DNA of 64,000 nt. Origin: a virus (lineage: Duplodnaviria; Caudoviricetes). The notes beneath the pieces are model-generated. The model did not search any database and was not told the origin of the DNA. It worked only from the letters and a program-made list of their open reading frames with translations. The DNA is taken from IMG/VR virus record IMGVR_UViG_3300042090_001530, positions 138,491-202,490 of that record; one strand, given 5' to 3'. The stretch's first letter is position 1; every line of letters begins with the position of its first letter. Of the stretch, positions 11,449-61,465 are shown piece by piece. Position numbers and translations under genes: made by a program.

Positions 11449-11718
11449 CTACGCCGCTGGCATGTCCCGCAAGGCGTCGCGCACCGCGTCCCAAGGGAAT
11501 ACCACGAGTCGTCCGTCGCTGCCGATGTCGGCGCCGTCGGGCAGTTGGGCGCGGAGTTCCTCGGCCCTGTCTTTGCCGATGTACGCGATGCTGCCGTCGG
11601 ACAGGATGAACACGTCCGGGCAGTTCATGCCCTGTGAGCTGCCGCGTTCCTGCGGTGTCGATCCGAGTCGGCCCACGATGGTGACTGGCGCGTGCCCGTC
11701 GCTGTCGGCAGATCCCAT
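11449..11718 (-). CDS. Conserved Streptomyces-type hypothetical protein (RLGSTP...CPDVF)
   Basis: ATG 11718; last gene of the radical SAM / methyltransferase cassette. Confidence 0.65.
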   Translation of the reverse strand: MGSADSDGHAPVTIVGRLGSTPQERGSSQGMNCPDVFILSDGSIAYIGKDRAEELRAQLPDGADIGSDGRLVVFPWDAVRDALRDMPAA

Positions 11719-11789
11719 GCCTGCGCTCCCTTCTTCGACGGCGCGCGAAGCGGCGTGGCCAACCGTAGCAGCGCGCCCGAATTGGCGTC

Positions 11790-12935
11790 TCAGGCCTTGA
11801 CGATCGCCCCCCAGTGCCCGCGGCTGAGCCGGATCGTGCCGTCGAGCCCGACGGTCGCGTTCGCACCGTACAGCGGCAGGCGCCCTTCGATCAGCCACCT
11901 CTTCTTGAGCCCGTCGAGGCTGCGCCACAGGTCGATCGGGCCACTCACGTGGACCGTAGGGAGTTGCCCGATGGAGCCTTCGGCGCGGGCCCATGAACCT
12001 TCCCGATCCCAGATCAGGCTGATCGCGTAGGTGCCGCGTCGCACCCACCGCGTTTGGATGCCCTGATGCTGGACGGCGAGGTTGGAGTACAACTCCCACG
12101 CGTCGTCGAGGTCGGTCAGCGGGAACACGCCCGCGCGCGCCGACTGGTCGCCGCTGGACTCGAGCATCAGGTCGAGTCGCCGCTTCGAGACTTCCGGCGG
12201 ATAGGTGTCGGAGTGGCGTGCGGGCATGAACCCGGCCCAGTCGCGTTCGATACGCCCGAGCAGCGTCCCGTCGGGTTGTCGGTTGGCGGTGAGGATCGCC
12301 GTCGTGCCGTCGAGCACCGTGACGATCCGGCCGCCGGGCCGTAGGGCTTCGATCCACGCGGGCGGGATCGGGCTGACGGCGACGGTCGCGACGATCCGGT
12401 CGTACGTGCCGGGCACGATCCGGGTCGCGTCGCACACCTCGAGGGTGGGCGTCAGGCCGTTTGCCTCGAGGCGTTCACGCGCGGCCTTCACCAGGTACGG
12501 GTCTACGTCGACCGAGGTGACATGCCTGTCGCCGAGGCGCGTGCACAGCAGGGCGGTGCCGTATCCGGAGCCGGTGCCGACGTCGAGGACGTCCATGCCG
12601 TCGACGAGTTGGCCGTGCCGGTACATCTGGATCAGCAGTCCGGGATGCGTGCTCGACGACGTGGGCCTACCGTCGTCCAGGGTCGTGCCGGGGGCCGCCG
12701 CGTCCGCGTGCATCGTGCCGACGCGGGTGACGAGCGAGACGTCCCGGTATGCGGCATCGACCCATCGGTCTGGGTTCTGCTTGCCGCCGTGGTTGACCCA
12801 TCCGTCGCCGCGACGCGCCCACCAGGAGGGCACGTATTCGTGCCGGGGGACCGATGCTAGGGGTTGGCGCCAGCGGGAGACGCCGGGCGTGACGGCGGCG
12901 GCCATGTCGGCGGCGCGCGTTTTCCAGTCGGGCAC
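11790..12935 (-). CDS. Protein-L-isoaspartate O-methyltransferase-like (PIMT/PCMT) SAM methyltransferase with C-terminal extension
   Basis: VPRHEYVP, SSSTHPGL, VLDVGTGSGYGTALL, VTSVDVD, YDRIVATVAV motifs; 381 aa. Confidence 0.85.
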   Translation of the reverse strand: MPDWKTRAADMAAAVTPGVSRWRQPLASVPRHEYVPSWWARRGDGWVNHGGKQNPDRWVDAAYRDVSLVTRVGTMHADAAAPGTTLDDGRPTSSSTHPGLLIQMYRHGQLVDGMDVLDVGTGSGYGTALLCTRLGDRHVTSVDVDPYLVKAARERLEANGLTPTLEVCDATRIVPGTYDRIVATVAVSPIPPAWIEALRPGGRIVTVLDGTTAILTANRQPDGTLLGRIERDWAGFMPARHSDTYPPEVSKRRLDLMLESSGDQSARAGVFPLTDLDDAWELYSNLAVQHQGIQTRWVRRGTYAISLIWDREGSWARAEGSIGQLPTVHVSGPIDLWRSLDGLKKRWLIEGRLPLYGANATVGLDGTIRLSRGHWGAIVKA

Positions 12936-36883: not shown

Positions 36884-38599
36884 TCAGTTCGTCTTCGTGT
36901 TGGTCAGGTGCGGCCCGATATACCCGACGATCATCTTGCCGGTCAGGCCCTTCGTGTCGTCGAGGAAGTAGACGCGGGGGCTGATTGATCCTCTTCGCTC
37001 GATCTGCAGGTGCGCCTGCATGGTCGTGCTGCCGTCCGGATCCACGTCGCTGGGGACCGGGAAGACGCGTTCGTCGCCCCAGTGGGCCATGGTCGTGTCG
37101 GATTCGGACATCGCGACCTGCGTGAGCGGCCAGCCTGCGGCGGCGCGTCCGGATCTGCAGTACTGGTAAAAGCCCGCATGGTCTGCATGCGTGGCCGCGT
37201 ATCCGTCCAGTGCGCGCAGGCCCTGCCACGTTTTGGCCGCCCACACCCTGGAGCGTTCGTTTTCGTCGAGAGACAGGGCTATCTGCGCGTCGGCGGTCAG
37301 CAACACACCCGTAAGGCCCGCGGCGCGCTCGAGGAGTTCGGCGAACGAGCCTGGGGCTCCCGGCGTGTCGCTGACTGCCGCGGCGTCTGCGTGCCGCCCC
37401 TGGGCGTACAGGAGGCCGCGCAGCACCTCGGCTTCGCCGCGGCCCCGCTCCGCCTCCTCCAGTGCCCACAGAGCCTCTTCCGTGTCCGCGTCGGACTGTC
37501 CGGCGAGCATGGCGTTCTGCTGCTCGAGCGACGCGATGGCGCGTTGCGAGAGCATGTCGGCGCGGCCGGCCTCACGCAGGTCGTCGTCGGCTTGCTTGAG
37601 GAGCGCGGTGAGGTCGGAGACTTCCTGCTGGAGGGCTTGGGCATCGACTGTGCCGCGCACGAGGTTGATCGCGGCTTGGCGGGCTTCCCGGTGGGCTTCG
37701 CCGACCTCCGGGAACGTGACCGTGCGCAACGCGTCCGGGAGCGGGGCGGCGGTGGCGAGCCGGTGCAGCGTGTTCGGCAGGGACCGCCATGCCGCGTCCG
37801 CAGGGTCCGATAGTCGCGCGGCGGCGAGGAACCGGTGCCGGGCCGCGTCGGCTGGCCATGCCGGGTCCACGCCGGGATGGAACGTGCGGATCGAGCCGGT
37901 GGCGACCCGGTGGTCTTCGCCGATCTGCTGCCGGAACGCATGGATCGCATCCTGGTCGGCGAGCAGGTAGAGGGATGCGGCGCCAGCGCACAGCGGCATC
38001 GCGCGTTGCATACGGTCCGACCAGACCGGTTCCGGGCTGAACGGGCGCGCCGCCACCAGCGCGGGTTTACGCCGGTCCGGGTCGCAGAGGATTTCCACGA
38101 GATCGGCCACGTCGTACTGGCTGATCTCCTGGGTGCCGCGGGTGAGTTTCGCGGGCCCGTCTTTGGGCTGGAGCGCGGCGACGAGGGAGCGGATCAGGGC
38201 GGGCCAGCCGGGGGTGACGAGCGTGCCGGGGTTCGGGAACGCCTCGAGGCCGACGGCGACGTGCATGGCACCGTTGTCGGCGACTGCGGTGACGGTGGTG
38301 CGCCAGGTCGCGTCCGTGTTCTCTTCGCGCAACTGGAGCCGGATCGCTGCTTCGGCGCCGGCCGGGTTGTAGACGACCTGGTTGATGAGGGTCGCGGTGT
38401 CGGTCAGGGCGTGGTGGCCCGGGGCGAGTGGGGCCTGGTAGTTCTTGCCCGCGAGCCATTCGGCGGTGACCGAGCGCGTCTTGCTGAATGCGTCGGGGTT
38501 GCGGGTGGTGAACGTGGCGCGGTGCGCGAGCGGTCTGTCGGGGTCGCCCGTCGGGGTCGTCGGGGCTAGATCGGCAGGAAGGTGGCTAACCGCGGTCAT
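36884..38599 (-). CDS. Large hypothetical protein: coiled coil + putative RelE-like RNase C-terminal domain
   Basis: 571 aa; C-terminus AHLQI..RVYFLDDT..G.MIVGYIGPHL resembles RelE/ParE-fold toxins (inference). Confidence 0.7.
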   Translation of the reverse strand: MTAVSHLPADLAPTTPTGDPDRPLAHRATFTTRNPDAFSKTRSVTAEWLAGKNYQAPLAPGHHALTDTATLINQVVYNPAGAEAAIRLQLREENTDATWRTTVTAVADNGAMHVAVGLEAFPNPGTLVTPGWPALIRSLVAALQPKDGPAKLTRGTQEISQYDVADLVEILCDPDRRKPALVAARPFSPEPVWSDRMQRAMPLCAGAASLYLLADQDAIHAFRQQIGEDHRVATGSIRTFHPGVDPAWPADAARHRFLAAARLSDPADAAWRSLPNTLHRLATAAPLPDALRTVTFPEVGEAHREARQAAINLVRGTVDAQALQQEVSDLTALLKQADDDLREAGRADMLSQRAIASLEQQNAMLAGQSDADTEEALWALEEAERGRGEAEVLRGLLYAQGRHADAAAVSDTPGAPGSFAELLERAAGLTGVLLTADAQIALSLDENERSRVWAAKTWQGLRALDGYAATHADHAGFYQYCRSGRAAAGWPLTQVAMSESDTTMAHWGDERVFPVPSDVDPDGSTTMQAHLQIERRGSISPRVYFLDDTKGLTGKMIVGYIGPHLTNTKTN

Positions 38600-38836
38600 G
38601 GTTGTCGACTCTCGGCCGGTTCCGGCAGTGGTGAGATTGCGCGCATGGGGTCCTCCTGGCTGGGGGCTGGGTGGCACGGCTTGCGGGCCGCGTGACGCCC
38701 GATGTTCGGCTGATCTGCCGCTATACCCATTGTTGCGCAACGTGCTGACAATTTCAGGGCGACGGTGTCACTGCAGCGGTCGCCTGAGGCACGGGAAAAG
38801 CCGCTGCATCCAGCGGGTGGCCGACACGCGCTCGAG

Positions 38837-39113: not shown

Positions 39114-39422
39114 TCACCGTCCCGGCCCGTCCGGTTCCGCCGGGTTGAGCGCGATCAGTGCGAGGCCGTCCAGGTCGACGGGAGCGCGTCGACTCTCGCC
39201 GGCCGTCTGGATCGCGAAGCGCTGTTCGGTGTCGGCGGCGTGGACGAGTACGGCACTGCCGTCGCCGACCGACGCGGCGATCACTGCCCACAGTTCGTCG
39301 CGGACCTTCGCGGACAGCGTCCCCACGTACAGGCCGGGCGTAGGTTCGAGCATCCAACGGCTCAGGGCGCCGCGGACGTGCGGCGCGACTGCGGTCGCGC
39401 TGATGACGGTCAGGTTGCTCAC
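39114..39422 (-). CDS. cas2: Type I-E CRISPR-associated endoribonuclease Cas2
   Basis: VRGALSRWMLEPTPGLYVGTLSAKVRDELW...TEQRF...PVDLDGLALI; GTGA overlap with cas1 stop. Confidence 0.93.
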   Translation of the reverse strand: MSNLTVISATAVAPHVRGALSRWMLEPTPGLYVGTLSAKVRDELWAVIAASVGDGSAVLVHAADTEQRFAIQTAGESRRAPVDLDGLALIALNPAEPDGPGR

Positions 39423-40420
39423 GGCCCGTCCTGCCCTCGGCCGTGGTTGGTGCCGCTCGGTACCGAACCGGCTTCCGGGTCCCAGAGTTCGAATGCGTTG
39501 GCCAGTTCGACATTGCCTGCGGGTTCGATCCCCGGTTCGAACAGGCGCTGGATGTCGCGGACGATGTTCGGCATGAGCCGGAACAGGGTCAGTCCGCGCC
39601 GGAACGCGCGCCTGGCGTCGCCTTCGGGGTCTTCGGATGCGTGCAGGGTGAACGCGAGCGGGATGGTGAGTTCGGCCTTGTACAGGTCGGCGATGTCGTA
39701 CACGAACGCGTGGCTGGTGCCGGCGTGTACGAATCCGAGGCCGGGGGAGCAGCCGAGCGCGGTGATCGCGGCGTGGACGATGCCGTACAGGCACTGGTTG
39801 GCTGCGGTCAGGGCGGCGTTGACGGGGTCTTGGCTTTCCCAGTCTTCGGGGTTGTAGGAGCGGCGGAACGCGTGCAGGCCGTGCTGTTTGGCGAGGCGCC
39901 TGTAGAGGGATTTCATCTGCCAGCCTTCCAGCCCGCGGAGCGTGCCCAGTTTGACGCCGTCGGGCAGTTGCCCTTCCGCAGTGGGGAACCGGTGGGCGTA
40001 CATGCGTTTGGCGACCGTGAGCCGCTTGGCGGGGTCGGCCCAGGCGGCTGCCTGCTTTTCGAGCCAGCGGCTCGACCGGCTGGACGGGGTGATCGCGGCG
40101 TAACAGCGGACGGTGCCCCAGCCGGTGAACACGATGGTGGTGCCGTGTCTGGCGAGGGTGGCGACTGCGGGGTTGGTGATGGAGGTTCCGGGGCCGAGGA
40201 GCAGGCAGCTGATGGCGGCGGTGGGGATGCGGAGGCGGCGTGTCGGGGCGCCGACGGCGGGGAATGCGAGGACGCCTGTGTCGTCTTGGGTGATGCGCAT
40301 GAGGTCGAGGAACAGGAACGAGAGGCTGTCGCCGACGCGTGGGAGCATGGCTGCGGTGGGTGCGGCGATGCGGCGTCGGGCTTGCTGGGTGTTGGGTTGG
40401 GGTTGGTTCTCTGGGTGCAT
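39419..40420 (-). CDS. cas1: Type I-E CRISPR-associated integrase Cas1
   Basis: LLLGPGTSIT, LRGLEG (catalytic E), GLGFVH (H), FVYDIADLYK (D); catalytic set intact. Confidence 0.95.
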   Translation of the reverse strand: MHPENQPQPNTQQARRRIAAPTAAMLPRVGDSLSFLFLDLMRITQDDTGVLAFPAVGAPTRRLRIPTAAISCLLLGPGTSITNPAVATLARHGTTIVFTGWGTVRCYAAITPSSRSSRWLEKQAAAWADPAKRLTVAKRMYAHRFPTAEGQLPDGVKLGTLRGLEGWQMKSLYRRLAKQHGLHAFRRSYNPEDWESQDPVNAALTAANQCLYGIVHAAITALGCSPGLGFVHAGTSHAFVYDIADLYKAELTIPLAFTLHASEDPEGDARRAFRRGLTLFRLMPNIVRDIQRLFEPGIEPAGNVELANAFELWDPEAGSVPSGTNHGRGQDGP

Positions 40421-40513
40421 CCGTTGTTGATAGCGCGGTTTCGCAGAGGGCTGAATGCTTGTCGCACGAACGAGTGACGTGTCGATGTTCGGCCGGTCCG
40501 GATGAGGATCTCC

Positions 40514-40970
40514 CGATCTTCCCGTGCGCTCGCGGGCCAGACCCTGGATGAAGAGGCGTCCGCGCGACCCCGACAGATCTTCCCGTGCGCTCGCGGGCCA
40601 GACCCGACGGCTCGTCATCGTCCGGCAGTGCCCTTAGATCTTCCCGTGCGCTCGCGGGCCAGACCGGAACTCGCGGCGGCCGGAGTGGTGGACGGCAGAT
40701 CTTCCCGTGCGCTCGCGGGCCAGACGCGTCATCCGGCAGATAAACTCGGCCCCGTTGAGATCTTCCCGTGCGCTCGCGGGCCAGACCTGATCGGGGTGCG
40801 ATCAGTCCTGCGCATTGCTAGATCTTCCCGTGCGCTCGCGGGCCAGACTGCCGCCGTCGCCGCGGAGACCGCTGCGGAGAAGATCTTCCCGTGCGCTCGC
40901 GGGCCAGACTCTCGGTCACCTGGTCGAGGTAGCCTTCGGCGAGATCTTCCCGTGCGCTCGCGGGCCAGAC
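40514..40970 (-). CRISPR. CRISPR array, 8 repeats / 7 spacers
   Basis: 29-nt repeat GTCTGGCCCGCGAGCGCACGGGAAGATCT (minus) at 40942, 40881, 40820, 40758, 40697, 40636, 40575, plus 40514 (terminal base variant, trailer). Spacers 32 nt (one 33 nt), i.e. I-E-like 61-bp period. Confidence 0.98.
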
Positions 40971-41005
40971 AGTTCGTGGCCAGCGCAAACACTCTTGAGT
41001 TTTAC
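40971..41005 (-). promoter_or_regulatory. Very short CRISPR leader
   Basis: 35 nt between TnpB-like stop codon and first repeat; ends GCGCTGGCCACGAACT, reminiscent of actinobacterial I-E leader ends (from memory). Confidence 0.5.
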
Positions 41006-42793
41006 TCACGAGTCAAGGGAAGCCGGGGGATCACTCCCCCGAGATGACCCGCCCCGTCGCCGAGACTGGCCTTCCTGCTTCGACAGCGGGGTCGAGAGCC
41101 GCCGGTCACCCGACGGACTTTGCCCACCTCCACAGGCGTTTAGACTCTCCCCGATATCCGAGGCGAGCGGTACCGCATGGTGCAGGATATTGCGCGCAGC
41201 ATTGACCTCGCGGTCAAGCTTCATACCGCACTTGATGTTCCCGCACCGGAAAACCACCTGCGTAAGCGGGATGCTTGGGTCTCGCCATCCACACTTGCAA
41301 CAGGTCTGACTCGACGGCAGGTCCCCGGCCGCAGCCCGGAACCGCGTACCCCACTGCGCCGCCTTGTACTCCAACTGGCGCCGCAACTCGGCAGGCGCCG
41401 TGTCCAGGATCGCCCGGTTGAAGCCGGCCTTCACCTTCACGTCGCTGCCGGGCGCCTCGACGGTGCCCTTCGCGGACCCGGTCATCTGCCGGACATTCAG
41501 GTCGCGGACAGCGATCTCCGGATAGTTGATCGCTATGCTCGCGGAGATCTGGTTCAGGGTGCCGCGCCGCGCCTCCGCAGTCCGATGATGCACGCGGCCG
41601 AGCCGCCTGACCGCCTTGGCACGGTTCGCCGACTGCGCCTGACCGCGCACGAACGGCTTACGCGCCACAGCCTGCGACGCCTTCACCAAAGCCCGCTTGT
41701 GCCTCTTGCCGTACCGAGGATTCTCATACGCAGTCTCGTCCGACAGGGCGACCAGGGTACGAACACCCCACTCGACGCCGACGGCCGGGCGCATCCGCTG
41801 CCGTTCCTTGGAGACCTTCTGCCGGGCCCGGGAGACCTCCTCGCGGTGCCGCATCGCCTCCGGGGACAGTTCGCACAGCACCGACGCGTACCAGCGGGAG
41901 CCGCCCCGGGAGATCGTCACCGACTTGACCACCGCGTGGCCCCGGTCGATCAGCCGCGCGAGGGGCTTGCAGGACTCGAACAGCCGGACCGAACCGATCC
42001 GCGGCACGTTCAGCCGGCGGTGTCCGTCGGGCCGGATCGACGGGTTGTGCACATCGTGGAACAGGGTGAACGAGTCGGTCGAGCGGCCCTTCTTCTTAAA
42101 CCGGGGCCTGCCCATCGCCCGGCCGACCCTGGCCCCGGTGCGCGACGCCATCCAGTTCTGCATCGCCGCCTGGGCGCGGTCGAAGCCGTTGGTGAAGCAG
42201 TACACGGAGACTTCGGGATGCCACGGGGAGCCGCCGTCTGCGGCGTCCTGGTCGCGGATTTCGCGCCACATGGTGGTGCAGTCCATCGCGGACGGGATCG
42301 CGTCGCCGCGCTCGAATCGGGCCTTCTTGAACTGCAGCACCTCGCGGCGCACGGCAGCGAGTCGCTCCTTGATCTCCAGCAGGTCGGGGCGCGTCTTGTC
42401 CTTGACTGCGGCCATCAGGGCTTTGCGCTCGTCGTCGAGCCGTTTGGTGTCGGCGGCCAACTCGGCGGCCTCGGCTTTGAGGATCGGCCGGGCCTGCTTG
42501 TCCCACTGCTTGATCCGCTCGCCGCGCACCTGGGCCGTCCACGCAGCGGTGGACTTCTCGTCCAGGCCGTCGGGCGGCTGCGGCATCGGCCCGGCGATCC
42601 GGGTGATGACCTCGTCGCGGCGCGCCTCCCAGGCGAGTTGGGCTTGGGACATCCATGCGATGCCGCGGTTGGTGGCCCACCGGGTGGCGCCAGCATGCCG
42701 GGCGAAGTCGGCGAGTTGGGCTTGGGTTGGGTCGAGGGCGAACCGATAGGCGCGCAGAACTGGCGCGGGCGCTTCGGTTTCAGCGGTGGCCAT
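41006..42793 (-). CDS. tnpB: RuvC-inactivated TnpB/Cas12-like RNA-guided protein, CRISPR-associated
   Basis: 595 aa; LRAYRFALDP N-terminus, PRFKKKG, Zn finger SQTCCKCG/CGNIKC. RuvC-I VGVEWG (D>E), RuvC-II IAVRDL (E>R), RuvC-III DREVNAARNI (D>E); ~110-aa helical insertion. Confidence 0.9.
   Translation of the reverse strand: MATAETEAPAPVLRAYRFALDPTQAQLADFARHAGATRWATNRGIAWMSQAQLAWEARRDEVITRIAGPMPQPPDGLDEKSTAAWTAQVRGERIKQWDKQARPILKAEAAELAADTKRLDDERKALMAAVKDKTRPDLLEIKERLAAVRREVLQFKKARFERGDAIPSAMDCTTMWREIRDQDAADGGSPWHPEVSVYCFTNGFDRAQAAMQNWMASRTGARVGRAMGRPRFKKKGRSTDSFTLFHDVHNPSIRPDGHRRLNVPRIGSVRLFESCKPLARLIDRGHAVVKSVTISRGGSRWYASVLCELSPEAMRHREEVSRARQKVSKERQRMRPAVGVEWGVRTLVALSDETAYENPRYGKRHKRALVKASQAVARKPFVRGQAQSANRAKAVRRLGRVHHRTAEARRGTLNQISASIAINYPEIAVRDLNVRQMTGSAKGTVEAPGSDVKVKAGFNRAILDTAPAELRRQLEYKAAQWGTRFRAAAGDLPSSQTCCKCGWRDPSIPLTQVVFRCGNIKCGMKLDREVNAARNILHHAVPLASDIGESLNACGGGQSPSGDRRLSTPLSKQEGQSRRRGGSSRGSDPPASLDS
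41012..41152 (-). ncRNA. TnpB omegaRNA-like scaffold overlapping the gene 3' end
   Basis: GGGGAGAGTCTAAACGCC...AAGCAGGAAG...GGGGGAGTGATCCCCCGGCTTCCC, the usual IS605-type 3' overlap encoding ESLNA...KQE; boundaries approximate. Confidence 0.55.
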
Positions 42794-42832
42794 GTTCTAC
42801 TCCTTCCCGGTTCGGCCCTGCAGGTGCGTCAG

Positions 42833-42854
42833 ATTTTAGCGGGTACGTCCGACA
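42833..42854 (-). promoter_or_regulatory. PafBC-type promoter of the TnpB-like/CRISPR unit
   Basis: Minus strand TGTCGG-ACGTACCCGC-TAAAAT = exact TGTCGG-N10-TANNNT; RBS GGAAGGAG downstream. Confidence 0.7.
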
Positions 42855-45062
42855 CTGGCGCGGCAGTCTCGCGAGCCCCTCGTGGCGGGTGGGCGCCGTC
42901 ACCACATCCGGCAAGCGCGCCAGAGCCCGACCGCCACAGCCTCCATGCGGTGCTCGATCAGCCATGCGGCGGTCGCGTCCACACCCCGCGTGGCGCGCAG
43001 CCGGACCCGGGTCCTCCACGGCAGTGGCGGGTGGCGTTTCCACTGGCCGTTCGGCTGCCGATAGAGGTAGGGCGCGGGCTGTCGGTCAGTCACCGTCGCG
43101 CACCCCATCCTTGCCGTTGAATCGCAGCGATTCGCGGATCTGGCGCTCGGGGAGCGGTTTGCCGCGTCCGTCCGTCCATGGCCGGCCCACGGGTCGATCG
43201 GCGTGCGTGTAGGCCCAGACTCTCGCATGGTCGCCCAGGTACCAGAGGGGTGTGCCGCGGCCGTCGGTGCGCACGGTGAAGCCTTCGCCGGCTTCGTAGG
43301 TGAACGATGCACCGGACGGTTCGGAAGCGTGGCTGGGGTCGATCAGGTCGGCGACAACTCTGAGGCATCTACCCGCGAACGCGAGGATCACGAGGCGCCC
43401 CACTCGGCCGCTGTCGCGACTTGGCCGGTCACCATCCTGGATGCCTTCCCATGTAGACGTCGTACCCCACGGCGCCCTCGACGGCCACGATCCCGGCCGC
43501 CGCTTCCTGTCCGGCCTGAACGTACCCGACGTAGTTCGGGTCGCTGATCGCGGCGGCCGTGGGCGGCACGCCGAACACGCTGCCGAAGCCGAGGTCGTCT
43601 TCGGGTTCCGTAGCGGCGGTCGCGTACTTGGACCGCGGCGAGCGGGGACGGTCCGGGTGTGGTGCCGCGCGGGTCACACGGTTCTCTCGGTCGCCCTTGT
43701 GCATCCGTTCCCGAAACTCGTGCAGGGCGATGCCGCCTTCGGGCCAGGTTGCGCCGGTCGCGAGCCAACCGTCGAGCTGCGCGAGCATGATGGACTGCGG
43801 GGTGGGTTCGCGGTCGAGCATTGGGGCTCCAGCGTTCCACCAGCGAACGCCCTCGTTGACCCGGTCGTGGGTCATCGGGAACTTGTCGGCGGTCAGGCCG
43901 AGTTCGGCGCGGTACGCCTCGAAAACGGCGAGCCGTTCCTTGCCGGGCCATTCGCCGGGGTAGGCGGGGAGCAGGCGGTCGGGGATGTCCATGTCACCCA
44001 TTCTCGCCGCCGCCTGCCGCGATCCGTTCGATCTCGAGCCGGTCACGCTCCAGCCGTTCCTCAAGTTGCTCCAGCGTGGACGGGGCGAACGTGTCGCAGC
44101 CGCACCGGCCGTAGCGCGTGCCGCCGGGCAACTCGCGGGCGACGCTGACCGCGCACGGACCGCGCTCATGGGAGGCGTAGTGGTGGCGGCAGTTCTCGCA
44201 CCCGACCGGCAGGAACATCGCGCAGTCGGCGCACACGAACCCGCCGACGGTGAACCGGACGTACGGGGCCTTCGGCTCGCCGCAGGTGCACTCGCAGCAT
44301 GAGCGACAGCGCTCGCAGAGTTCCGCTTCGCCGCCGGGATGCCACCAGTTGCTTCCGCCGTGGCAGTCGCGGCAATCCGGGTGCCCGGTCCTGTGGGCCG
44401 GCGGCCCGCAGGCAGCGCTGGCCGTGTCGAGTGGCGGCGGGGCGTTGCGCTGCGAGTACGGCACGATCGGCAGGTCGGGGCGCATCGCGGACAGTACCGC
44501 GTCGATCGGCCCGTTGGTGAACCCGAGTTGATCGGTGGTGATCGCGGTGAACGTGGCTCCGCAGCCGGGTTGCCCGTGGCTGTCGCCGTGCCCGGAGATC
44601 GTCTCATGTGCGGTTTGTCCGCGGACGAGGGTGCCGCGGCCGCAGTGCGAGCACTTCGATGTATAGCTACTGACGATTATGGTCGCGGTCGCGCCTGGCG
44701 TGGACGGCTCGTCGCGGTATGCGTTGTACGAAGTCTCGCTCACTGCTCGCCACCGCCCACGCCGGCCCGCCCGGCTAGGAACTGCTCGACCCACTGCGCG
44801 TTCGCCTCGCGCGAGTCGTCATACTCGATCCACCGGTCGCTGGCACTGATCTCGCTGGCCGTGATGACGCCTTCCCGGAAGCACTCGTCCCATTCGTCGC
44901 TCAGCCGGTCCCTCACGCGCGGGTCGGTCGCCCGGTCCCGCTCGGCCATGATCAGAGGGCAGTTGCGGAAGAACGTGCCGTCCGACTGCTTGCGATACCA
45001 GGTACGGGGCGCGGGTCCGCTTTCGGTCCGGCGGTGGCGGGTTCGACCCCAGCGGATGCCGG

Positions 45063-46004
45063 TCACGACTCGCCACCTTCCTCGCCGACCCCGAGTGCCT
45101 TGTCGAGCCGTTCCGCATAGTCGGGTGCGAGCAGGTCCGTGATCGCGAGCCCGTGGGCGAAGGAGTAGCCGCGGAAGTTCTCCGGGCTGATCTCCAGCAT
45201 CCCCGGGTTGCGACGGAGGCCTTCGAGCGCCCGGCGCCAACGCTCGTCCTCAGGCAGTTCATACCACAGGTCCGAGGAGCAGTCGGCGTACAAGGCCTCG
45301 CGGTCTGCGGCTTCGGGGTAGCCCTGTTCCCATTCGGCACGGCCGTCTTCGGTCTGCGCCCAGTAAGGTGCCCAGCCCTCGGGCATCGGCGGCGGGGACC
45401 AGTGCGCAACATCTGCGTTCGGGAACTGGTCGCACACCGAGTAGGACATGACTATGGGTTCGTCATCGCGGTCGAGCAGTAGTTTGATGACGTCCCGCCA
45501 GCCCTGATCCGACCACTTCCGCTCGTCGTTGCGGTCCGTGTACCACTGGCCCTCGCGGAAGATCCCCGCGTTGAGGCCCTCGGCGATGACGCTCGCGAGC
45601 CACGCCCGGTTGATGCCCTCGACGTAGCAGTGGATCTCGCACTGGCCGTGCAGCCGCGCCGCGAGCCTGACCGTGTCGTTGCCGTACTTCAGGGCCGTGT
45701 TCAGCCGGAGCGCGAACGACTCGATCTCCTTGTCCTTCCATGTGAACATCTCACCGTAGAAGCCGCTCCGGAACGCGGTGGCGAACGTGTCGCGCCACAT
45801 CGGAATCCAGCCGGGGGACTGCCGGTCCGTCTTGTGCAGGTAGTGGTCGGGGCGGATGAGGCCGAGGATCCGGTCCACGTCGTCGTGGTAGATGGATCCG
45901 AGGAATCCGTCCGTCAGGTGGTCGACGAGTAGCCCGCAGTGCGCGCGTTCGGAGCCGCGCAGTTCGGCGTCGCCGTGCCGGGAGTGAAAGTAGACGCGAC
46001 TCAT
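45063..46004 (-). CDS. Hypothetical protein
   Basis: 313 aa, ATG 46004 (MSRVYFHS...), strong GC3 bias. Confidence 0.7.
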   Translation of the reverse strand: MSRVYFHSRHGDAELRGSERAHCGLLVDHLTDGFLGSIYHDDVDRILGLIRPDHYLHKTDRQSPGWIPMWRDTFATAFRSGFYGEMFTWKDKEIESFALRLNTALKYGNDTVRLAARLHGQCEIHCYVEGINRAWLASVIAEGLNAGIFREGQWYTDRNDERKWSDQGWRDVIKLLLDRDDEPIVMSYSVCDQFPNADVAHWSPPPMPEGWAPYWAQTEDGRAEWEQGYPEAADREALYADCSSDLWYELPEDERWRRALEGLRRNPGMLEISPENFRGYSFAHGLAITDLLAPDYAERLDKALGVGEEGGES

Positions 46005-46190
46005 CGGCTCGTTCCGTTCTCGGCGTCGTGCTTCGGTGCGACGCCGTCGAGGATCTGCCGGATGTCGCGGGCGAGCTCGAGATAGTTCTGCTCGCCGCCG
46101 TAGGGATGCTGCGCGAGACGCTCCTCGACCCACTCGGGCGGCGGCAAGAGTTCGGCGAGACGCGTCTTGAGCCGGTCCAGTTGGCCGACG

Positions 46191-47519: not shown

Positions 47520-49889
47520 TCATGCGGCGGTTCGGGCCTTGAGCATCAGGCCCATCACTTCGGCTGCCGCGGCCTGCTCCGAGAACGCGTCGCCCGCGTT
47601 CCCGTCCAGCACTGCGGCTGTGATCGAACGCTTTCCGGAGACGACCTGCCACATGTACTCGTCCACCGTGCCCTCGGCGAGGAACACCGGGAAGTCGACG
47701 GGTCGGGTCTGGCCGATCCGGTGCATGCGCGCCGCCATCTGCTCGATCTCCGCCCACGTCCACGGCACCTCCGCCATCGCCCCGTGCGCCGCAGCGGTGA
47801 GCGTGTGGCCGACGCCGCCGGCCTGCGTGGAGACTGCGATCACCGGGGCCTTGCGGGCGGGCAGCGACTGGAACGCGGCCTTGTCCGCCTCGACGGACTC
47901 GGTGGACTGTCCGCCCTGGATCCGCAGGCCGGTGAACGTGGCCGCGTAGTGGTCGACGACCGGCCGGTGGTGCGCGGCCACCATGACCTTCTCGCCACGG
48001 GCCGTGAGCTTCTTCACGTGCCGCGTCACGGTGGCGGTCTTGACGTTCCCGACGAGTTGCCGCAGCAGGTTCAGGCGCACCAGCACTTCCGCGGACATGG
48101 CCTTGCGGCAGAACTGGTCGCGGGCGACCGCGTCGGACAGGTCGATGCCGCGCGACTCGGCGAGCTCGATCAGTGCGGCGAGGAAGTCATCCTCCGCACT
48201 CCGGTAGGCGGCCATCGCTTTCGCATTCACGGCGTCCGGGCCGAGCCACTCCGGGCGGATCGTGAGCTGCGGCAGGTTCAGTGCACTGTCGCCGCGGCGC
48301 AGGTAGATCCCGGCCGAGCGCAGCTTCAAGTGCAATTCCTCGAGGTTGGAGGCGCCGTCGAACGTGGTGCCCCACTCGCCCGCCTGCGGGCCGCAGTACC
48401 GGTATTTGAACGGCCACTCGCCGCCCATGTCCTCCAGGCGCCCGAGGATCCGCAGCTGCTGGAGTAGCTCCTTGGGTCGGTTGACGATCGCCGTGCCCGT
48501 CAGGCACAGCACGAGTCCGCCGCGGCCGGCGACGTGCGTGCCGAGCGTCTCCATGGCCTGAGAGCGGGCGGCGGCGGCCTCCTTGCCGAAGTGCGACTCG
48601 TCCACGATCAGCGCCTTCGGGTTCAGCTTCACCAGGGCCTTGGCCCATCCGGCGCGGTTGCGCTTCGCGCCGTCCACCGTGGCCTTGTACGTCTCCTTGA
48701 GCACATCGAACCCGATGACCACGACGTGCGTCCCGGGCGGGACCGGGGTCGGGGCGTTGCCGGAGGCGACGAACACGCGCCGGTCGGGGAAGAACTTCGC
48801 GACCTCGGCCAGCCAGTTCAGCCGCAGCGACGTCTTGCACACGATCACTGCGGGCCAGGCGTCGTCCACTGCGACGGCGGCAAGGGACAGCAGGGTCTTG
48901 CCGAGGCCCATCTTGTCGCCGATCAGTACCTGTCGGTTCGCGGCGATGAACTCGAGGCCCGCGTGCTGGTGCGGCTTCAACGTGCCCGCGAGGCCCGGAA
49001 CGGTGATCTCGCCGCGCCCTGGGGAGAGGGCGATCGATGCGCACAGGTTGTACGCCTCGCGCTCCACGGCCCCGCCGGCAGCCTCACGCACGTCCTGCGC
49101 CACGCGCAGCCCGCGGGCGTCCGCGAGTGCCAGGGCCTCCGGGATCGAGCCCTGGGGGACTGTCCAGGCCCCGGACGGCTTGTCCCAGCGGCGACCGGGG
49201 ATCGCACGGACCTCATCGAGGACGCCGCTACCGGGGTACGTGTCGAAGCGGATCGCGATCGACCCGTCGTCGGTGAACGCGACGTTCGGCTCGGTCGGGG
49301 TCTCGGGCACGACGGGCGCGGGCGGGTTGTCGGCCAGCTGCTCGACCTCCGGGTCCACGGGGATGCCGTGGGTGCGGGCGAACTCGCGCACCTGCGGCGC
49401 GGAGGACGGCGGGTACAGGTTCACCTTCGACCGGGCGCCGAACTCGGCGCGGTACGCGCGGCCGGGGATCTGCTTGGTGGCCTCGACCATGTCCGGGTCG
49501 TACGGGAAGCCGAGCACGATCACGGGCTGGCCGCCATTGGTCGCGGTCTCGCAGAACGAGAGGGCGGCGATGCGCTCCGCGTCGCGCTGTGCCTGGCGCC
49601 GCCCGGTCAGGGTGTCGCGCACCTGAGCTTCGGGATCCTCGGGCACCGGCAGGTCCTCGAACTCGATCCCGGCGGCGGCCAGCTGGCCGCGGTAGATGCG
49701 GGCGAGCTGGTAGGCGCCGACCGCTGCGTCCTCGTCCCACAGGGCGGCGGGGATCGAGGCGAGGTAGTGGCCGAGCGGGACGTCCCCGGCGTTGAAGCCG
49801 CGCCCGTCATCCTCGCGCGCTCCGTCGCACTGCCCGGCGATCACGCCGATGGCCTCGGCGAGAGGGCTCCAGTCCAGCTTCGTCATCAT
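47520..49889 (-). CDS. SNF2-family (HARP/SMARCAL1-like) helicase with N-terminal extension
   Basis: GDKMGLGKT, IVDESH, LTGTAIVNRP, STQAGGVGHTLT, QMAARMHRIGQ; RBS GAGGAG. Confidence 0.92.
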   Translation of the reverse strand: MMTKLDWSPLAEAIGVIAGQCDGAREDDGRGFNAGDVPLGHYLASIPAALWDEDAAVGAYQLARIYRGQLAAAGIEFEDLPVPEDPEAQVRDTLTGRRQAQRDAERIAALSFCETATNGGQPVIVLGFPYDPDMVEATKQIPGRAYRAEFGARSKVNLYPPSSAPQVREFARTHGIPVDPEVEQLADNPPAPVVPETPTEPNVAFTDDGSIAIRFDTYPGSGVLDEVRAIPGRRWDKPSGAWTVPQGSIPEALALADARGLRVAQDVREAAGGAVEREAYNLCASIALSPGRGEITVPGLAGTLKPHQHAGLEFIAANRQVLIGDKMGLGKTLLSLAAVAVDDAWPAVIVCKTSLRLNWLAEVAKFFPDRRVFVASGNAPTPVPPGTHVVVIGFDVLKETYKATVDGAKRNRAGWAKALVKLNPKALIVDESHFGKEAAAARSQAMETLGTHVAGRGGLVLCLTGTAIVNRPKELLQQLRILGRLEDMGGEWPFKYRYCGPQAGEWGTTFDGASNLEELHLKLRSAGIYLRRGDSALNLPQLTIRPEWLGPDAVNAKAMAAYRSAEDDFLAALIELAESRGIDLSDAVARDQFCRKAMSAEVLVRLNLLRQLVGNVKTATVTRHVKKLTARGEKVMVAAHHRPVVDHYAATFTGLRIQGGQSTESVEADKAAFQSLPARKAPVIAVSTQAGGVGHTLTAAAHGAMAEVPWTWAEIEQMAARMHRIGQTRPVDFPVFLAEGTVDEYMWQVVSGKRSITAAVLDGNAGDAFSEQAAAAEVMGLMLKARTAA

Positions 49890-49915
49890 GTCCACTCCTC
49901 AACCAGCCTTTCAGC

Positions 49916-56010: not shown

Positions 56011-57474
56011 TCATGCCGCATTCGCCGCCTTCAGCGCCGTCGCGATATCTGCCAGAACCGCGTTCTTCCCGGGCAGCAGAACGCCGTTGTCCGCCGCCCA
56101 TCGACGCAGCACCTCGCGGCCCATGCCGCCCGGCGCGCCCTTGCCAACCAACTCGTCCACGTACCGCTGCACGGCATCGTGGTGAGACCGCAGCGGGCCC
56201 GGGTCCGACAGCTCATGGGCCGTGCCGCCGGGTAGCCAGTTGCCCGCCGTCTCACGCTTGCCGCGGCGCGTGACGAAGAACGTCTCCTGCCCGAGCCCGG
56301 TCCGCGAGTGAGTGCGATGCAGCCGCAGATCCGTGATGATCGTTTCCGTTCCCGCCTGCGTGTCGTAGGTCAGGCGCAGATCCTGCTGCGTCAACTCCCA
56401 CACGTGGTCGACGTCCTGTGCCTTGGCGGAAGATCCGCGTGAGCCCTTTTCCTCATCCTTGCCCATGTGGTCCAGCCGGACGCCGGCGATCCCGCGCTGC
56501 TTGAGCGGGGCATGGACGGCCCGGTAGAACGCGAGCCAGGTGTCGGAGTCGTTCTCCTTCCCGGCGATGAACCGGGAGACGGTGTCGAACACGACGAGGT
56601 CCGGCTGAGCCTCGTCCACGATGGCGAGGAGCTCGGCGGCCGCGGTGGACGACTGGTCCAGGGCCCCAGCGAAGCCGGGGAACAGGCGATAGTCCAGTCG
56701 CTCCAACTCCGAGGGCGTCGCGCCGAAGGACACCATGCGGGTGATGACGTCGCGCAGGTTGTTCTCGCGGTCGAAGTACAGCACGGAGAGCGGTTCGTGG
56801 CATTCGTCGGACAGAAAGCGGCGCCCGGTGACGCACCGGTAGATCCAGTCGTGAAGGAACAGCGACTTGCCGACCTTGCCGCCGCCGACAATTGCGGCCT
56901 GCTGTCCGTGTTCGAGGAACTTGCCGGGTAGCCAGTCCACGTCGCTGAAGTCGATGGCAAAGGCCGTGTCCCAGTCGATCGAGGGGAACTTCTCGGGCCT
57001 CGTTGAGCCATCCGCGGTGCGCGGTTCGGCGAGTTCGCTGAACTCTTGGGCGAGCTGTTTCGCGACCAGGTGCAGGTCGTCGACTTCGGTGTCTGCGAGC
57101 GCCTGCGTCGCGCGCCGAACACTGTCTTGGACGCGCCGACGGTCGGATTCGCTGGCGATGAGCTCAGCATGGAACCCGATCTGCGCTGGCAGGCACGAGT
57201 TGACGGCCAGTGTGACCATATGGCTGTACAGGTTGTCGGTCAGATGTCCGTCATCGGCCAGTTGCGAACTGACGGTGATCAAGTCAACGGGCAGCCCATG
57301 CTTATGGATAGCCACTGCGGCGTTGAAGATGTATTCGTGCTGCGGATAGGCGAACTGGGCGCCTTCGACGTGCTCAAGCGCTTCGAGGACCGCGGTCGGA
57401 TGGTTGAGGATCGAGCCGAGGACGGCACGCTCGGCAGCGTCTACGAGTGCGGAGCGGTTGTCCGTTGCGCTCAC
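56011..57474 (-). CDS. DnaB N-terminal domain fused to AAA_25 (RepA-type SF4) helicase
   Basis: AERAVLGSIL...F..PQHEYIF...PVDLITV (DnaB-N); GGGKVGKS, LYFDREN, VVFDT, DHMGKD...RGSSA. Confidence 0.85.
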   Translation of the reverse strand: MSATDNRSALVDAAERAVLGSILNHPTAVLEALEHVEGAQFAYPQHEYIFNAAVAIHKHGLPVDLITVSSQLADDGHLTDNLYSHMVTLAVNSCLPAQIGFHAELIASESDRRRVQDSVRRATQALADTEVDDLHLVAKQLAQEFSELAEPRTADGSTRPEKFPSIDWDTAFAIDFSDVDWLPGKFLEHGQQAAIVGGGKVGKSLFLHDWIYRCVTGRRFLSDECHEPLSVLYFDRENNLRDVITRMVSFGATPSELERLDYRLFPGFAGALDQSSTAAAELLAIVDEAQPDLVVFDTVSRFIAGKENDSDTWLAFYRAVHAPLKQRGIAGVRLDHMGKDEEKGSRGSSAKAQDVDHVWELTQQDLRLTYDTQAGTETIITDLRLHRTHSRTGLGQETFFVTRRGKRETAGNWLPGGTAHELSDPGPLRSHHDAVQRYVDELVGKGAPGGMGREVLRRWAADNGVLLPGKNAVLADIATALKAANAA

Positions 57475-57614: not shown

Positions 57615-58364
57615 GTGGCTGAGGAACCGCTGTACCGACAGATCGCAGCCGCCTTGCGGAAAGACATCGCCGCAGGCGCGTACGGCGATGATGGAAGACT
57701 GCCTGGCGAGAAGGCGCTTGCTGCCCAGTGGAAGACCTCGACCGCGACGACGAGCAGCGCTCTCAGATGGCTTGAGCGCGAGGGGGTTATCGAGATCCGC
57801 CGTGGCGTTGGCGCCTTCGTTCGAAGCCGCAAGCCGATCCTCCGAAACGCGAATGCTCGGCTTGCGAAGAGTCAGTGGGGTGAAGGGAAAGCCATCTGGC
57901 AGGTGGACCTCGGTGACCACTACCCCGTACCTGAGACCGAGGTGTTCCTGTCCGGCGACGAGGGCGCGCCTTCCGTACCCGACGTTGTGCGCGAGCACCT
58001 GCCGGCCGAAAGCTACCTGATCCGTGACCGCCGCTACACCGTGGATGGTCAGCCCGTGCAGCTCTCCAGGTCGTACTTCGACTACGAGCTGGCGAGGGGG
58101 ACGCGCATCGAGAAGCGCGATTCCGGTCCGGGCGGGGTCTACAACCGACTGCTCGAACTCGGCTACGAGGTCAAGGACCCGGACGAGTTCCTGCGCGCCC
58201 GCAATCCCACCGAGGATGAGGCGAAGCGCCTGCGGATCACGACGGACAGGCCCGTCGTGGAGATCGTGCGCCTTGCGGCCACGTCGGGGGGCAAGTTGGT
58301 CGAGGTGAACGTGATGGTGCTGGTCGGCGATGCCTACGTGTTGCAATATAAGGTCACCACCTAG
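57615..58364 (+). CDS. GntR-family (HutC/KorSA-like) regulator with UTRA domain
   Basis: PLYRQIAAALR...LPGEKALA...GVGAFV plus UTRA; RBS GAGGAGG. Confidence 0.9.
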   Translation: MAEEPLYRQIAAALRKDIAAGAYGDDGRLPGEKALAAQWKTSTATTSSALRWLEREGVIEIRRGVGAFVRSRKPILRNANARLAKSQWGEGKAIWQVDLGDHYPVPETEVFLSGDEGAPSVPDVVREHLPAESYLIRDRRYTVDGQPVQLSRSYFDYELARGTRIEKRDSGPGGVYNRLLELGYEVKDPDEFLRARNPTEDEAKRLRITTDRPVVEIVRLAATSGGKLVEVNVMVLVGDAYVLQYKVTT

Positions 58365-59683: not shown

Positions 59684-59945
59684 GTCAACGACCCAGTCCT
59701 GAAGGACTGGGCTTGAGGTCCAACTGGAGTTCAAGCCCGTGTTGACCAGCCCTAGTCGATCATTTCAAGGAGGTGCATTCGATTGACTACGTTTCACGTG
59801 AGCGTGCAGACCCACCAGGCCGTGCTTCCTCAGCGGCCTGCTCTGGAATCCGTGGGAGCAGACAATCCGGGTCGGAACGAAACGGCCCACGGACACCCCG
59901 CCGACGTGCGGGGCACTGGCGTGGAACATGGGCGAGGGGAGACTC
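59684..59945 (+). ncRNA. IscB omegaRNA (HEARO-like) scaffold
   Basis: GTCAAC...GTTGACCAGCC, CTACGTT, TGCTTCCTCAGC...CTCTG, AACATGGGCGAGGGGAGAC landmarks; 3' boundary approximate. Confidence 0.8.
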
Positions 59946-61461
59946 CCGGCTGCGGCACCCGCGGCCAGGAGCGTCACGCTGATCCCGCTTCGGCGGGAGA
60001 GGTAGAGACCGCTGCCGGTGACGGCAGCACATCATATGCCGGGGCTGCGATGGTCGCGGTCCTGGATCGTCACGGGCGCCCGCTGATGCCGTGTCATCCG
60101 GCCCGCGCCCGCGAACTGCTCGCGAAGGGCCGGGCCGTGGTCGCCCGCCACACCCCGTTCGTGATCCGTCTGAAAGACCGCGACCTCGCGGATAGCGAAG
60201 TCGCTGGCGTCACGCTGCGCATCGACCCCGGGTCGAAAGGCACCGGGATCGCCACCACCACCGACGTCCAGCGGATCGACACCGCGACCGGCGAACTGAC
60301 CGCTGCCCGCAAGGGCCTGCTAGCGATCCAGCTCGACCATCGGGGCGCGCAGATCAAGGCGAAGCTTGAGCAGCGCTCGAACTGCCGGCGCCGTCGTCGC
60401 TCGGCGAATCTGCGCTACCGCGCGCCGAGGTTCCTGAACCGTACGAAGCCCGCTGGCTGGCTTGCCCCGTCGCTTCAGCATCGCGTGGACGCGACCACGT
60501 CGTGGGCCGGGCGGCTCTCGCGCTGGTTTCCGGTCGCGGGGATCGAGTTCGAGCGCGTCTCGTTCGACGTGTCGGCGATGGGCGTCGGCGTCGACCTGGC
60601 GGGTGTCGAGTATCAGCGGGGCACCCTGTTCGGGTATGAGGTGCGGCAGTTCCTGCTGGAGAAGTGGGGCCGATCCTGTGTCTACTGCGCGGCCGAGGGC
60701 GTGCCGTTGCAGGTCGAGCACATCCGGCCCAAGGCGCGCGGCGGCTCGGACCGGATCTCGAACCTGACGCTCGCGTGTGAGAAGTGCAACCAGGCCAAGG
60801 GTGCGCGGCCAGTAGAAGAGTTCCTTGCCGGCCGGCCCACGCTGCTCGCGAAGATCCTGCGGCAGGCGAAGGCTCCGTTGCGGGACGCCGCCGCGATGAA
60901 CGCGACACGTTGGGCGCTGTGGCGGGAGCTGAGGGCGACGGGCCTGCCGGTGCGCGCCTGGTCCGGCGGTCGGACGAAGTTCAACCGGCACACCCAGGGC
61001 GTGGCGAAGTCGCACACCCTCGACGCGCTGTGCGTCGGCGAGCTCGGGCCCGGCGTCCGCATCGTGCGACACCCCGCCGTGGTCCTGACCGCGAAGGCGA
61101 CCGGGCGCGGCCGGTATCGGCGCACCGACCCGGACGCGTACGGATTCCCGCGCAAGACGAACCCCAGGGTCAAGCAGCACTTCGGGTTCGCGACCGGCGA
61201 CATGGTCCGCGCCGTCGTGCCGAGCGGCAAGAAGCAAGGAACTCACGTCGGCCGCGTCGCAGTGCGCGCCATAGGCAACTTCAACATCACCACCATGCAT
61301 GGAACCGTGCAGGGCATTCACCACCGTCACGTCCGGCTGCTCCAGCGCGCCGACGGATACGGATACACCACCAGCAGAGAGGTCGCACCGCCGATGTACA
61401 CGCACAACCCGGAGGGCTTCCTCCCCGCCCTGAAGGACGGGGCTTCCGCCCCGGATTTCAG
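59684..61461 (+). mobile_element. IS200/IS605-family IscB element, non-autonomous (no tnpA)
   Basis: Left end GTCAAC + hairpin CCCAGTCC-TGAA-GGACTGGG; right-end hairpin CCCCGCCC-TGAA-GGACGGGG; contains omegaRNA and iscB. Confidence 0.85.
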
Positions 61462-61465
61462 GTGA
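60050..61465 (+). CDS. iscB: RNA-guided endonuclease IscB
   Basis: PLMPCHPARARELL, RuvC-I IDPGSK, Arg-rich bridge helix, RuvC-II FER, HNH CVYC...EHIRP...CEKCNQAKG, RuvC-III SHTLDA; all catalytic residues present. Confidence 0.93.
   Translation: MVAVLDRHGRPLMPCHPARARELLAKGRAVVARHTPFVIRLKDRDLADSEVAGVTLRIDPGSKGTGIATTTDVQRIDTATGELTAARKGLLAIQLDHRGAQIKAKLEQRSNCRRRRRSANLRYRAPRFLNRTKPAGWLAPSLQHRVDATTSWAGRLSRWFPVAGIEFERVSFDVSAMGVGVDLAGVEYQRGTLFGYEVRQFLLEKWGRSCVYCAAEGVPLQVEHIRPKARGGSDRISNLTLACEKCNQAKGARPVEEFLAGRPTLLAKILRQAKAPLRDAAAMNATRWALWRELRATGLPVRAWSGGRTKFNRHTQGVAKSHTLDALCVGELGPGVRIVRHPAVVLTAKATGRGRYRRTDPDAYGFPRKTNPRVKQHFGFATGDMVRAVVPSGKKQGTHVGRVAVRAIGNFNITTMHGTVQGIHHRHVRLLQRADGYGYTTSREVAPPMYTHNPEGFLPALKDGASAPDFR

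Follow-up and report, generated by a model that had tools for sequence, protein, structure and literature searches.

A tailed-phage CRISPR locus that pairs a putatively inactivated Cas12n-like effector with type I-E adaptation genes

Background

Type V-N (formerly V-U4) systems, built around the effector Cas12n, are the closest described relatives of the CRISPR locus analysed here, which lies at 39114-42854 in the final 64 kb of a 202,490-bp phage record (IMG/VR IMGVR_UViG_3300042090_001530, positions 138,491-202,490; Duplodnaviria; Caudoviricetes). This whole stretch of 64,000 nucleotides (nt) is called the window, and coordinates refer to it unless stated otherwise. The solved Rothia dentocariosa Cas12n (RdCas12n, PDB 9J09) has the catalytic residues D287, E386 and D484, and Cas12n systems have a trans-activating CRISPR RNA (tracrRNA) that overlaps the open reading frame (ORF) of the effector, with a published scaffold of 194 nt, and a 5'-AAN protospacer-adjacent motif (PAM) (PMC12216341). 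Systems of types V-U1 to V-U5 typically lack adaptation genes (PMC11013384). Naturally inactivated Cas12 effectors are known from types V-K and V-M, from some V-C, V-O and V-P systems and as dCas12f, and phage-encoded CRISPR systems are known too. The type V-M effector Cas12m achieves interference through binding alone (PMC11013384), and predictions extend such cleavage-free binding to further inactivated subtypes of type V (PMC12669027).

The locus comprises a Cas12n-like effector gene, a CRISPR array, cas1 and cas2, in this order on the minus strand. An earlier note on this stretch, made from the sequence alone, had described the same unit, and each of these four parts was recovered. We consider it probable that the phage encodes at this locus an adaptive type V CRISPR system, derived from the Cas12n (V-N) lineage, whose effector no longer cuts DNA.

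The effector and its family

The effector gene (41006..42793, minus strand) encodes 595 amino acids and has a ribosome-binding site, GAAGGAG, 7 nt 5' of its ATG. RdCas12n is its closest solved relative (phmmer E 1e-60), and it shares 49% identity with a protein of Actinomadura craniellae, the source species of the characterised AcCas12n. An AlphaFold model (predicted local distance difference test, pLDDT, 89.9; predicted template modelling score, pTM, 0.84) has the TnpB/Cas12 fold, with only the C-terminal tail (residues 549-595) disordered (pLDDT < 50), and Foldseek matched the model to TnpB, Cas12p, Cas12f, Cas12m and RdCas12n. The HTH_OrfB, OrfB_IS605 and zinc-ribbon domains are kept, with four invariant cysteines, and about 100 extra helical residues (roughly 65-165) are present relative to 508-residue members of the clade described below, so that the helix-turn-helix, zinc finger and helical insertion reported in the earlier note are all found. 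Judged from sequence comparison, the effector belongs to the known Cas12n family. The earlier note had likened it to TldR, Cas12k and Cas12m and had overlooked the actual family.

Membership in Cas12m was considered and rejected, as no Cas12m chain occurs among the PDB sequence matches of the effector at E <= 1 (phmmer), the likeness lies at the level of the fold only and a tracrRNA-like scaffold is present. Identity as a mobile IS200/IS605 or IS607 TnpB was rejected as well: the IS607_TnpB profile score (207 bits) is below the family cut-off of 350, the effector gene is a single copy in the phage and no tnpA adjoins it.

A clade with an altered RuvC site

The catalytic D287, E386 and D484 of RdCas12n align with E341, R430 and E529 of the effector, in the motifs VGVEWG, AVRDL and DREVNA; the alignment confirms the claim of the earlier note that all three acidic RuvC residues are changed. 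We collected 231 homologues of the effector, and 25 carry this Glu/Arg/Glu (E/R/E) combination. They form one clade in a maximum-likelihood tree (Shimodaira-Hasegawa-like approximate likelihood ratio test, SH-aLRT, 100; stem length 0.54), nested among proteins with Asp/Glu/Asp (D/E/D), including the A. craniellae protein. E341, R430 and E529 are 100% conserved across the 25 members, whose identity to the effector spans 46-94%; the corresponding positions in 70 active relatives are D in 97%, E in 99% and D in 83%. The clade also has a helix of its own (residues 311-334), in which M314, E318 and R322 do not vary, as well as a small insertion at about residues 379-384. The ratio of nonsynonymous to synonymous substitution rates (dN/dS) lies at 0.18-0.35 when residues 1-540 of the effector are compared with those of four clade members, and the clade is under purifying selection. 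The tree and the alignment point to one old loss of the RuvC triad, which has been kept since.

The canonical triad is lost, and binding without cutting, the mode proposed in the earlier note, is the best reading. The rival possibility that the E/R/E site is rearranged and still cuts, be it target DNA (at a low rate or by nicking), RNA or the precursor of its own CRISPR RNA (pre-crRNA), draws on the fact that Asp is replaced by Glu at two of the three positions, on the invariant extra helix, whose E318 is close in sequence to RuvC-I, and on the rearranged yet active RuvC sites of several TnpB branches (PMC10691335). We consider it unlikely, as the RuvC-II glutamate is an arginine in 25 of 25 members, which puts a positive charge at a metal-ligand position. 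Moreover, four other TnpB genes of the same phage keep D/E/D, which argues against a general drift, and even Cas12m with an intact D/E/D site does not cut DNA (PMC11013384).

Among loci from representative bacterial genomes, the best 80 yielded no E/R/E member. The members with genomic context all lie on large metagenomic contigs dense in small unannotated genes, some of them with integrase or recombinase genes, and at least one contig of the clade is an IMG/VR viral contig. Searching IMG/VR with the single effector protein as query returned no close relatives, and an alignment-based query returned only relatives at 46% identity or less. Some E/R/E effectors (P0022 at L011/L019, 6001-8226; P0024, P0025 and P0027) are fused to an N-terminal He_PIG (immunoglobulin-like) domain, and these adjoin long, partly degenerate arrays without cas1-cas2.

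The array as a trait of the Cas12n branch

The array (40514..40970, minus strand) begins 35 nt after the effector stop codon and consists of eight copies of the 29-nt repeat GTCTGGCCCGCGAGCGCACGGGAAGATCT and seven spacers, six of 32 nt and one of 33 nt; the last repeat, proximal to cas1, deviates at its 3' end. No second array was found elsewhere in the 202-kb phage genome. Arrays with the same 61-nt period lie downstream of the effector in seven further E/R/E loci (L008, L009, L010, L011, L012, L016 and L183). The synteny recurs in every clade locus with a sufficiently long contig, which bears out the linkage of effector and array asserted in the earlier note.

The same format of 29 + 32 nt is present beside active D/E/D relatives (L014, L022, L023, L024, L025, L088 and L089), sampled at 36-46% identity, among them a Streptomyces plasmid (L088) and Mycolicibacterium (L089). 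In relatives down to about 36% identity a 61-nt array generally lies directly downstream where the contig extends past the gene, with L021 as an exception, and in the survey of all collected loci the more distant ordinary TnpBs have no array. This distribution marks the I-E-like array format as a trait of the Cas12n branch and not as a novelty of the window locus; the E/R/E clade stands apart only by the loss of its nuclease and by having captured cas1-cas2. The independent transition from TnpB to CRISPR that the earlier note had proposed is thereby refuted, since the effector is nested in the Cas12n lineage and its active relatives already bear arrays.

One Kitasatospora genome has both an active V-N-like locus (L112) and an I-E system, with repeats of the same length and different sequence. 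Its host I-E locus (L182, 3143-4673 and 14452-15092) carries arrays of the repeat GTCGGCCCCGCGCTCGCGGGGGTTGCTCC.

A conserved guide RNA scaffold and its RNA traces

A tracrRNA-like structured scaffold (40971..41168, minus strand) overlaps the final ~54 effector codons and the 35-nt leader, and is conserved in seven clade loci. From each of seven E/R/E loci we aligned the 260 nt up to and including the first repeat and found this region to be far more conserved than the proteins. The RNAalifold consensus structure has 59 pairs, with 94.9% of the alignment cells paired. Both sides are changed in 20 of these pairs, a number that 0 of 500 shuffles matched, and structures slid by 1-3 columns have only 1-6 such pairs. 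In one helix the anti-repeat CUUCCCUUG (41022-41014, minus strand), within the last effector codons, pairs with CACGGGAAG of the repeat. Five of its eight pairs are compensatory; L009, for example, has CUUCCACUG facing CAGUGGAAG. A second anti-repeat stretch, GCGCUGG, lies within the scaffold at about 40986-40980 (minus strand). The alignment thus indicates a tracrRNA-like scaffold with an anti-repeat that is conserved and co-varies with the repeat. The codons overlapping the scaffold have a lower synonymous rate (dS) and a dN/dS raised to 0.65-1.07, a pattern that RNA-level constraint on a disordered tail would give. The scaffold agrees with the ORF-overlapping tracrRNA and 194-nt scaffold published for Cas12n. 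The tracr region matches no family in Rfam.

Two wetland metatranscriptome runs from different studies yielded exact contigs on the locus. The first contig (X4; 376 nt, depth 101) covers 40807-41162 without mismatches, that is, the tracr region, repeats 1-3 and spacers 1-2, and has Illumina adapter directly beyond 41162; the second (X5; 215 nt) covers 40943-41153. Only if the library were dUTP-stranded would the type of this adapter put the RNA on the minus strand, and we make no claim of it. In these two metatranscriptomes no RNA contig falls on the remaining effector gene, cas1 or cas2, and the 20-kb surroundings have only three other short RNA contigs, at a depth of ~3. The contigs fit an abundant small RNA that comprises the tracr region together with the first repeat-spacer units. 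The promoter that the earlier note had placed upstream of the effector was not confirmed: a sigma-70 scan was negative, with only a -10-like hexamer, TAAAAT, at 42838-42833.

Adaptation genes and spacer turnover

The cas1 gene (39419..40348, minus strand; probable start ATG at 40348, alternative start at 40420) and the cas2 gene (39114..39422, minus strand; GTG start) overlap by 4 nt at the cas1 stop. Both pass the I-E-specific NCBIfam cut-offs, Cas1 with 322 bits on TIGR03638 (Cas1e, cut-off 215.6) and Cas2 with 73.5 bits on TIGR01873 (Cas2e, cut-off 33.15), and the Cas1 motifs EG, FVHxG and YDxAD align with solved I-E Cas1. The type I-E assignment and the kept Cas1 active-site residues of the earlier note are thus well founded. 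Its statement that cas3, Cascade and cas6 are missing from the window holds for the entire 202,490-bp phage, which has no profile match to Cas7e, Cse1, Cas5, Cas6e or the Cas3 core (PF09481, PF09344, PF09704, PF08798, TIGR01587; Cse2 was not searched for).

Five E/R/E loci have I-E cas1-cas2 (the window, L008, L009, the contig encoding P0009, and L183). In L183 (6001-10208) the two genes are inverted and face the effector, with an 18-repeat array in effector orientation between them, and L011, L012 and L016 lack cas1-cas2 and keep their arrays. Identity to the window Cas1 (95%, 82%, 83% and 66%) roughly tracks effector identity. The nearest cellular Cas1e proteins, from Catenulispora, Streptomyces, Actinomadura and Kitasatospora, are 60-67% identical. 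On a 162-kb IMG/VR contig (L065, 5001-6463) a distant TnpB-like gene (~30% identity) is followed directly by a cas1 only 28% identical to that of the window; the two may form a further TnpB-cas1 pair of a large viral contig, unrelated to that of the window.

The window and L008 are ~93% identical in DNA over 43031-36830, and their seven and two spacers have none in common, which argues for ongoing spacer turnover. Both the window and L009 have a degenerate repeat at the cas1 end, and for this reason the array leader is probably on the effector side.

The adaptation genes bring in a different reading, in which the phage array and Cas1-Cas2 supply a host I-E Cascade-Cas3, host Cas6e processes the CRISPR RNAs (crRNAs), host Cascade uses them against rival phages and the dead Cas12n-like protein has another role or none. 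The I-E-like length and period of the repeats, which keep a short G+C stem, are compatible with such use, as are cas1 and cas2 genes of I-E type, 60-67% identical to Cas1e of likely hosts, in which I-E is common. We regard it as improbable all the same. The anti-repeat within the effector gene changes in concert with the repeat, and where cas1-cas2 is inverted (L183) or absent (L011, L012 and L016) the array still lies by the effector; both make service to a host Cascade less likely. Furthermore, the window repeat is found in no array of 401 Streptomycetaceae genomes or of JGI metagenome contigs, and where both systems coexist, in Kitasatospora, the I-E repeat differs from the V-N repeat.

We also weighed whether a broken Cas12n and a leftover array make this locus a functionless relic in decay, as the failure to find spacer targets could imply. 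The effector frame of 595 codons is intact and under purifying selection, and the same three substitutions are present across a clade at 46-94% identity. Compensatory changes in the RNA scaffold, spacer turnover between close relatives and the occurrence of the tracr/array stretch in RNA libraries point the same way, and we give the relic hardly any credence.

The phage and the surroundings of the locus

The phage record has a CheckV completeness of 98% and a G+C content of ~68%. Outside the window it encodes large terminase, portal, tape-measure and tail-fibre proteins and a tyrosine integrase (66503-67891, minus strand, of the full record; PHROG 1, E 4e-39). The integrase suggests a temperate life style, and the mobile element of the earlier note is a large, probably temperate tailed phage. 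Its hosts are likely actinobacteria of soil or wetland; the nearest cellular Cas1e proteins, from the four genera named above, point to actinobacteria.

Four further TnpB-like ORFs lie outside the window (11454-12689, plus strand; 90703-91434, minus strand; 101556-102467, plus strand; 130912-131535, minus strand; positions of the full record). They are 33-38% identical to the effector, all with an intact RuvC D/E/D, and are probably ordinary insertion sequence-borne RNA-guided nucleases.

A guide-directed regulator or recruiter that serves not for defence but to steer the expression of phage or host genes or the insertion of DNA, comparable to TldR, dCas12f with sigma-E or Cas12k with Tn7, would be another role for an effector in a temperate phage. 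Dead relatives of TnpB and Cas12 have repeatedly been found in such roles (bioRxiv 10.1101/2023.11.30.569447; PMC13472631; PMC10691335), the phage encodes an integrase, and tracr/array RNA stands far above other phage sequence in the RNA libraries, which fits expression from a prophage. A regulator would need a fixed guide, yet the spacers differ wholly between phages that are 93% identical, and cas1-cas2 is kept. The phage genome has no sigma-70 family gene and no rve transposase match, and no spacer matches the phage's own genome. Such a role therefore appears doubtful to us.

The large ORFs beside the CRISPR locus (36884-38740, 43994-44794 and 45063-46133, all on the minus strand; 618, 266 and 356 amino acids) have no match in Pfam or PHROG, and the region of the 618-residue ORF is ~93% nucleotide-identical to L008. 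The window also encodes an RRXRR-HNH endonuclease (59783-61465, plus strand), an SNF2-family helicase (47520-49895, minus strand), a DnaB-like helicase (56011-57474, minus strand) and a GntR/UTRA regulator (57615-58364, plus strand). The contig encoding P0009 has a GntR/UTRA gene near its CRISPR system as well.

Proposed mechanism

In the system that we propose, transcription would cover the stretch that starts within the 3' end of the effector gene and takes in the array. The first ~190 nt of the transcript would fold as a scaffold of the TnpB/Cas12n type (tracrRNA), whose anti-repeat would pair with the 3' half of each repeat. The effector would load the tracrRNA:crRNA, locate PAM-flanked complementary DNA, form an R-loop and remain bound, and would in this way block transcription or replication of the target, likely a competing phage or plasmid and possibly a host gene. 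The I-E Cas1-Cas2 of the phage would extend the array by 32-nt spacers on the side next to the effector. As in Cas12m, the most likely function is to bind DNA under RNA guidance, adaptively and without cleaving it; we infer this cleavage-free binding, the side on which spacers are added, what the targets are and the benefit to the phage.

I-E Cas1-Cas2 preferentially select protospacers with 5'-AAG. With the 5'-AAN PAM of Cas12n, the two modules should be compatible, and the tie of a class 2 effector to a class 1 (I-E) integrase at this locus may in turn explain why the PAM of Cas12n is so unusually A-rich.

Several observations weigh against a binding-only adaptive system. The D-to-E changes are conservative and the clade helix 311-334, with its invariant E318 and R322, adjoins RuvC-I, so that a rearranged active site with residual or altered activity keeps a small share of the probability. 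Assembled RNA contigs fix neither the strand nor the ends of a transcript, and RNA libraries can contain DNA. No protospacer, and so neither target nor PAM, was found for any spacer in the phage's own genome, all collected loci, GenBank phages (four arrays), PLSDB plasmids and 401 Streptomycetaceae genomes, or with three spacer 24-mers in IMG/VR and one 24-mer in JGI metagenomes. A match of 27/29 to spacer 2 in a Streptomycetaceae genome was judged to be due to chance, as it lies in GCG-rich coding DNA without an AAN flank.

Novelty and significance

The papers that we searched and read make no mention of an inactivated Cas12n clade, of its residence in phages or of an attached I-E adaptation module. 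The E/R/E clade may lie among the unnamed V-U groups (V-U6 to V-U45) of PMC10691335.

The broader proposition is that large actinobacterial phages turned Cas12n into a self-contained, adaptive and cleavage-free DNA silencer, guided by tracrRNA:crRNA and supplied with spacers by a phage-carried I-E integrase; we see its chances as evenly balanced. If true, the silencer would let the phage turn off competing mobile elements, or genes of its host, with no DNA breaks, and the locus would provide the first known case of a stable natural partnership between a class 2 effector and an I-E adaptation module, as well as the first Cas12n that is dead by nature. Evolution would then once more have seen a nuclease lost while the array, the tracrRNA and even the uptake of spacers were kept, now in Cas12n and on phages. 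For the phage, silencing without cutting could exclude competitors or tune the host with no DNA-damage response triggered. As a tool, a naturally dead effector of ~500-600 amino acids with an A-rich PAM would join the compact DNA-binding platforms (Cas12m, dCas12f) that are used in base and epigenome editing.

Comparison with known systems

TldR resembles the window effector as a TnpB-family protein with an inactivated RuvC and a kept guide RNA scaffold, and acts by binding, as is expected of the window effector. It differs in having one fixed guide and neither array nor cas1-cas2, in contrast to the eight-repeat array with spacer turnover described here. It also regulates host genes (flagellin and ABC transporter loci), and its descent from mobile TnpB passed through no CRISPR stage. 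Type V-K CRISPR-associated transposons have the Tn7-like partners TnsB, TnsC and TniQ; the phage genome has no rve match, and its TniQ search was silent, as it was in TniQ control genomes, so that the TniQ result carries no weight.

Type I-E systems resemble the locus in their adaptation genes, which pass the Cas1e and Cas2e cut-offs, and in the 29-nt repeat and 32-33-nt spacers. The window module differs in that it would serve a class 2 effector in a phage without matches to Cascade, Cas3 or Cas6e (Cse2 not being part of the search). Cas12j/CasPhi and Cas-lambda are likewise small single-effector CRISPR systems on large phages; unlike the window effector, they are active nucleases of other Cas12 branches and tracrRNA-free. 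Their systems are usually without cas1-cas2.

Cas12m (type V-M; MmCas12m and GoCas12m) shares the expected mode of action, crRNA-guided and PAM-dependent binding that blocks transcription or replication without cleavage. It also has a similar size (~600 amino acids) and a TnpB-derived fold (Foldseek E 5e-12 to 8PM4). It belongs to another branch and differs in lacking a tracrRNA and adaptation genes, in processing its own pre-crRNA and in its T- or C-rich PAMs.

Cas12n itself (V-N, formerly V-U4/C2c9; RdCas12n, PDB 9J09, and AcCas12n) is the family to which the effector is assigned, with 44-49% identity to actinobacterial members. Both have a TnpB-like size, a disordered C-terminal tail, a tracrRNA over the 3' end of the ORF and an array directly downstream. 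Unlike described Cas12n, the window effector has E/R/E in place of D/E/D, residues that suggest the loss of cleavage, and its clade has the extra helix at 311-334 and the small insert at ~379-384. The window system also differs in residing on large phage-like contigs and, in one subclade, in carrying its own I-E cas1-cas2.

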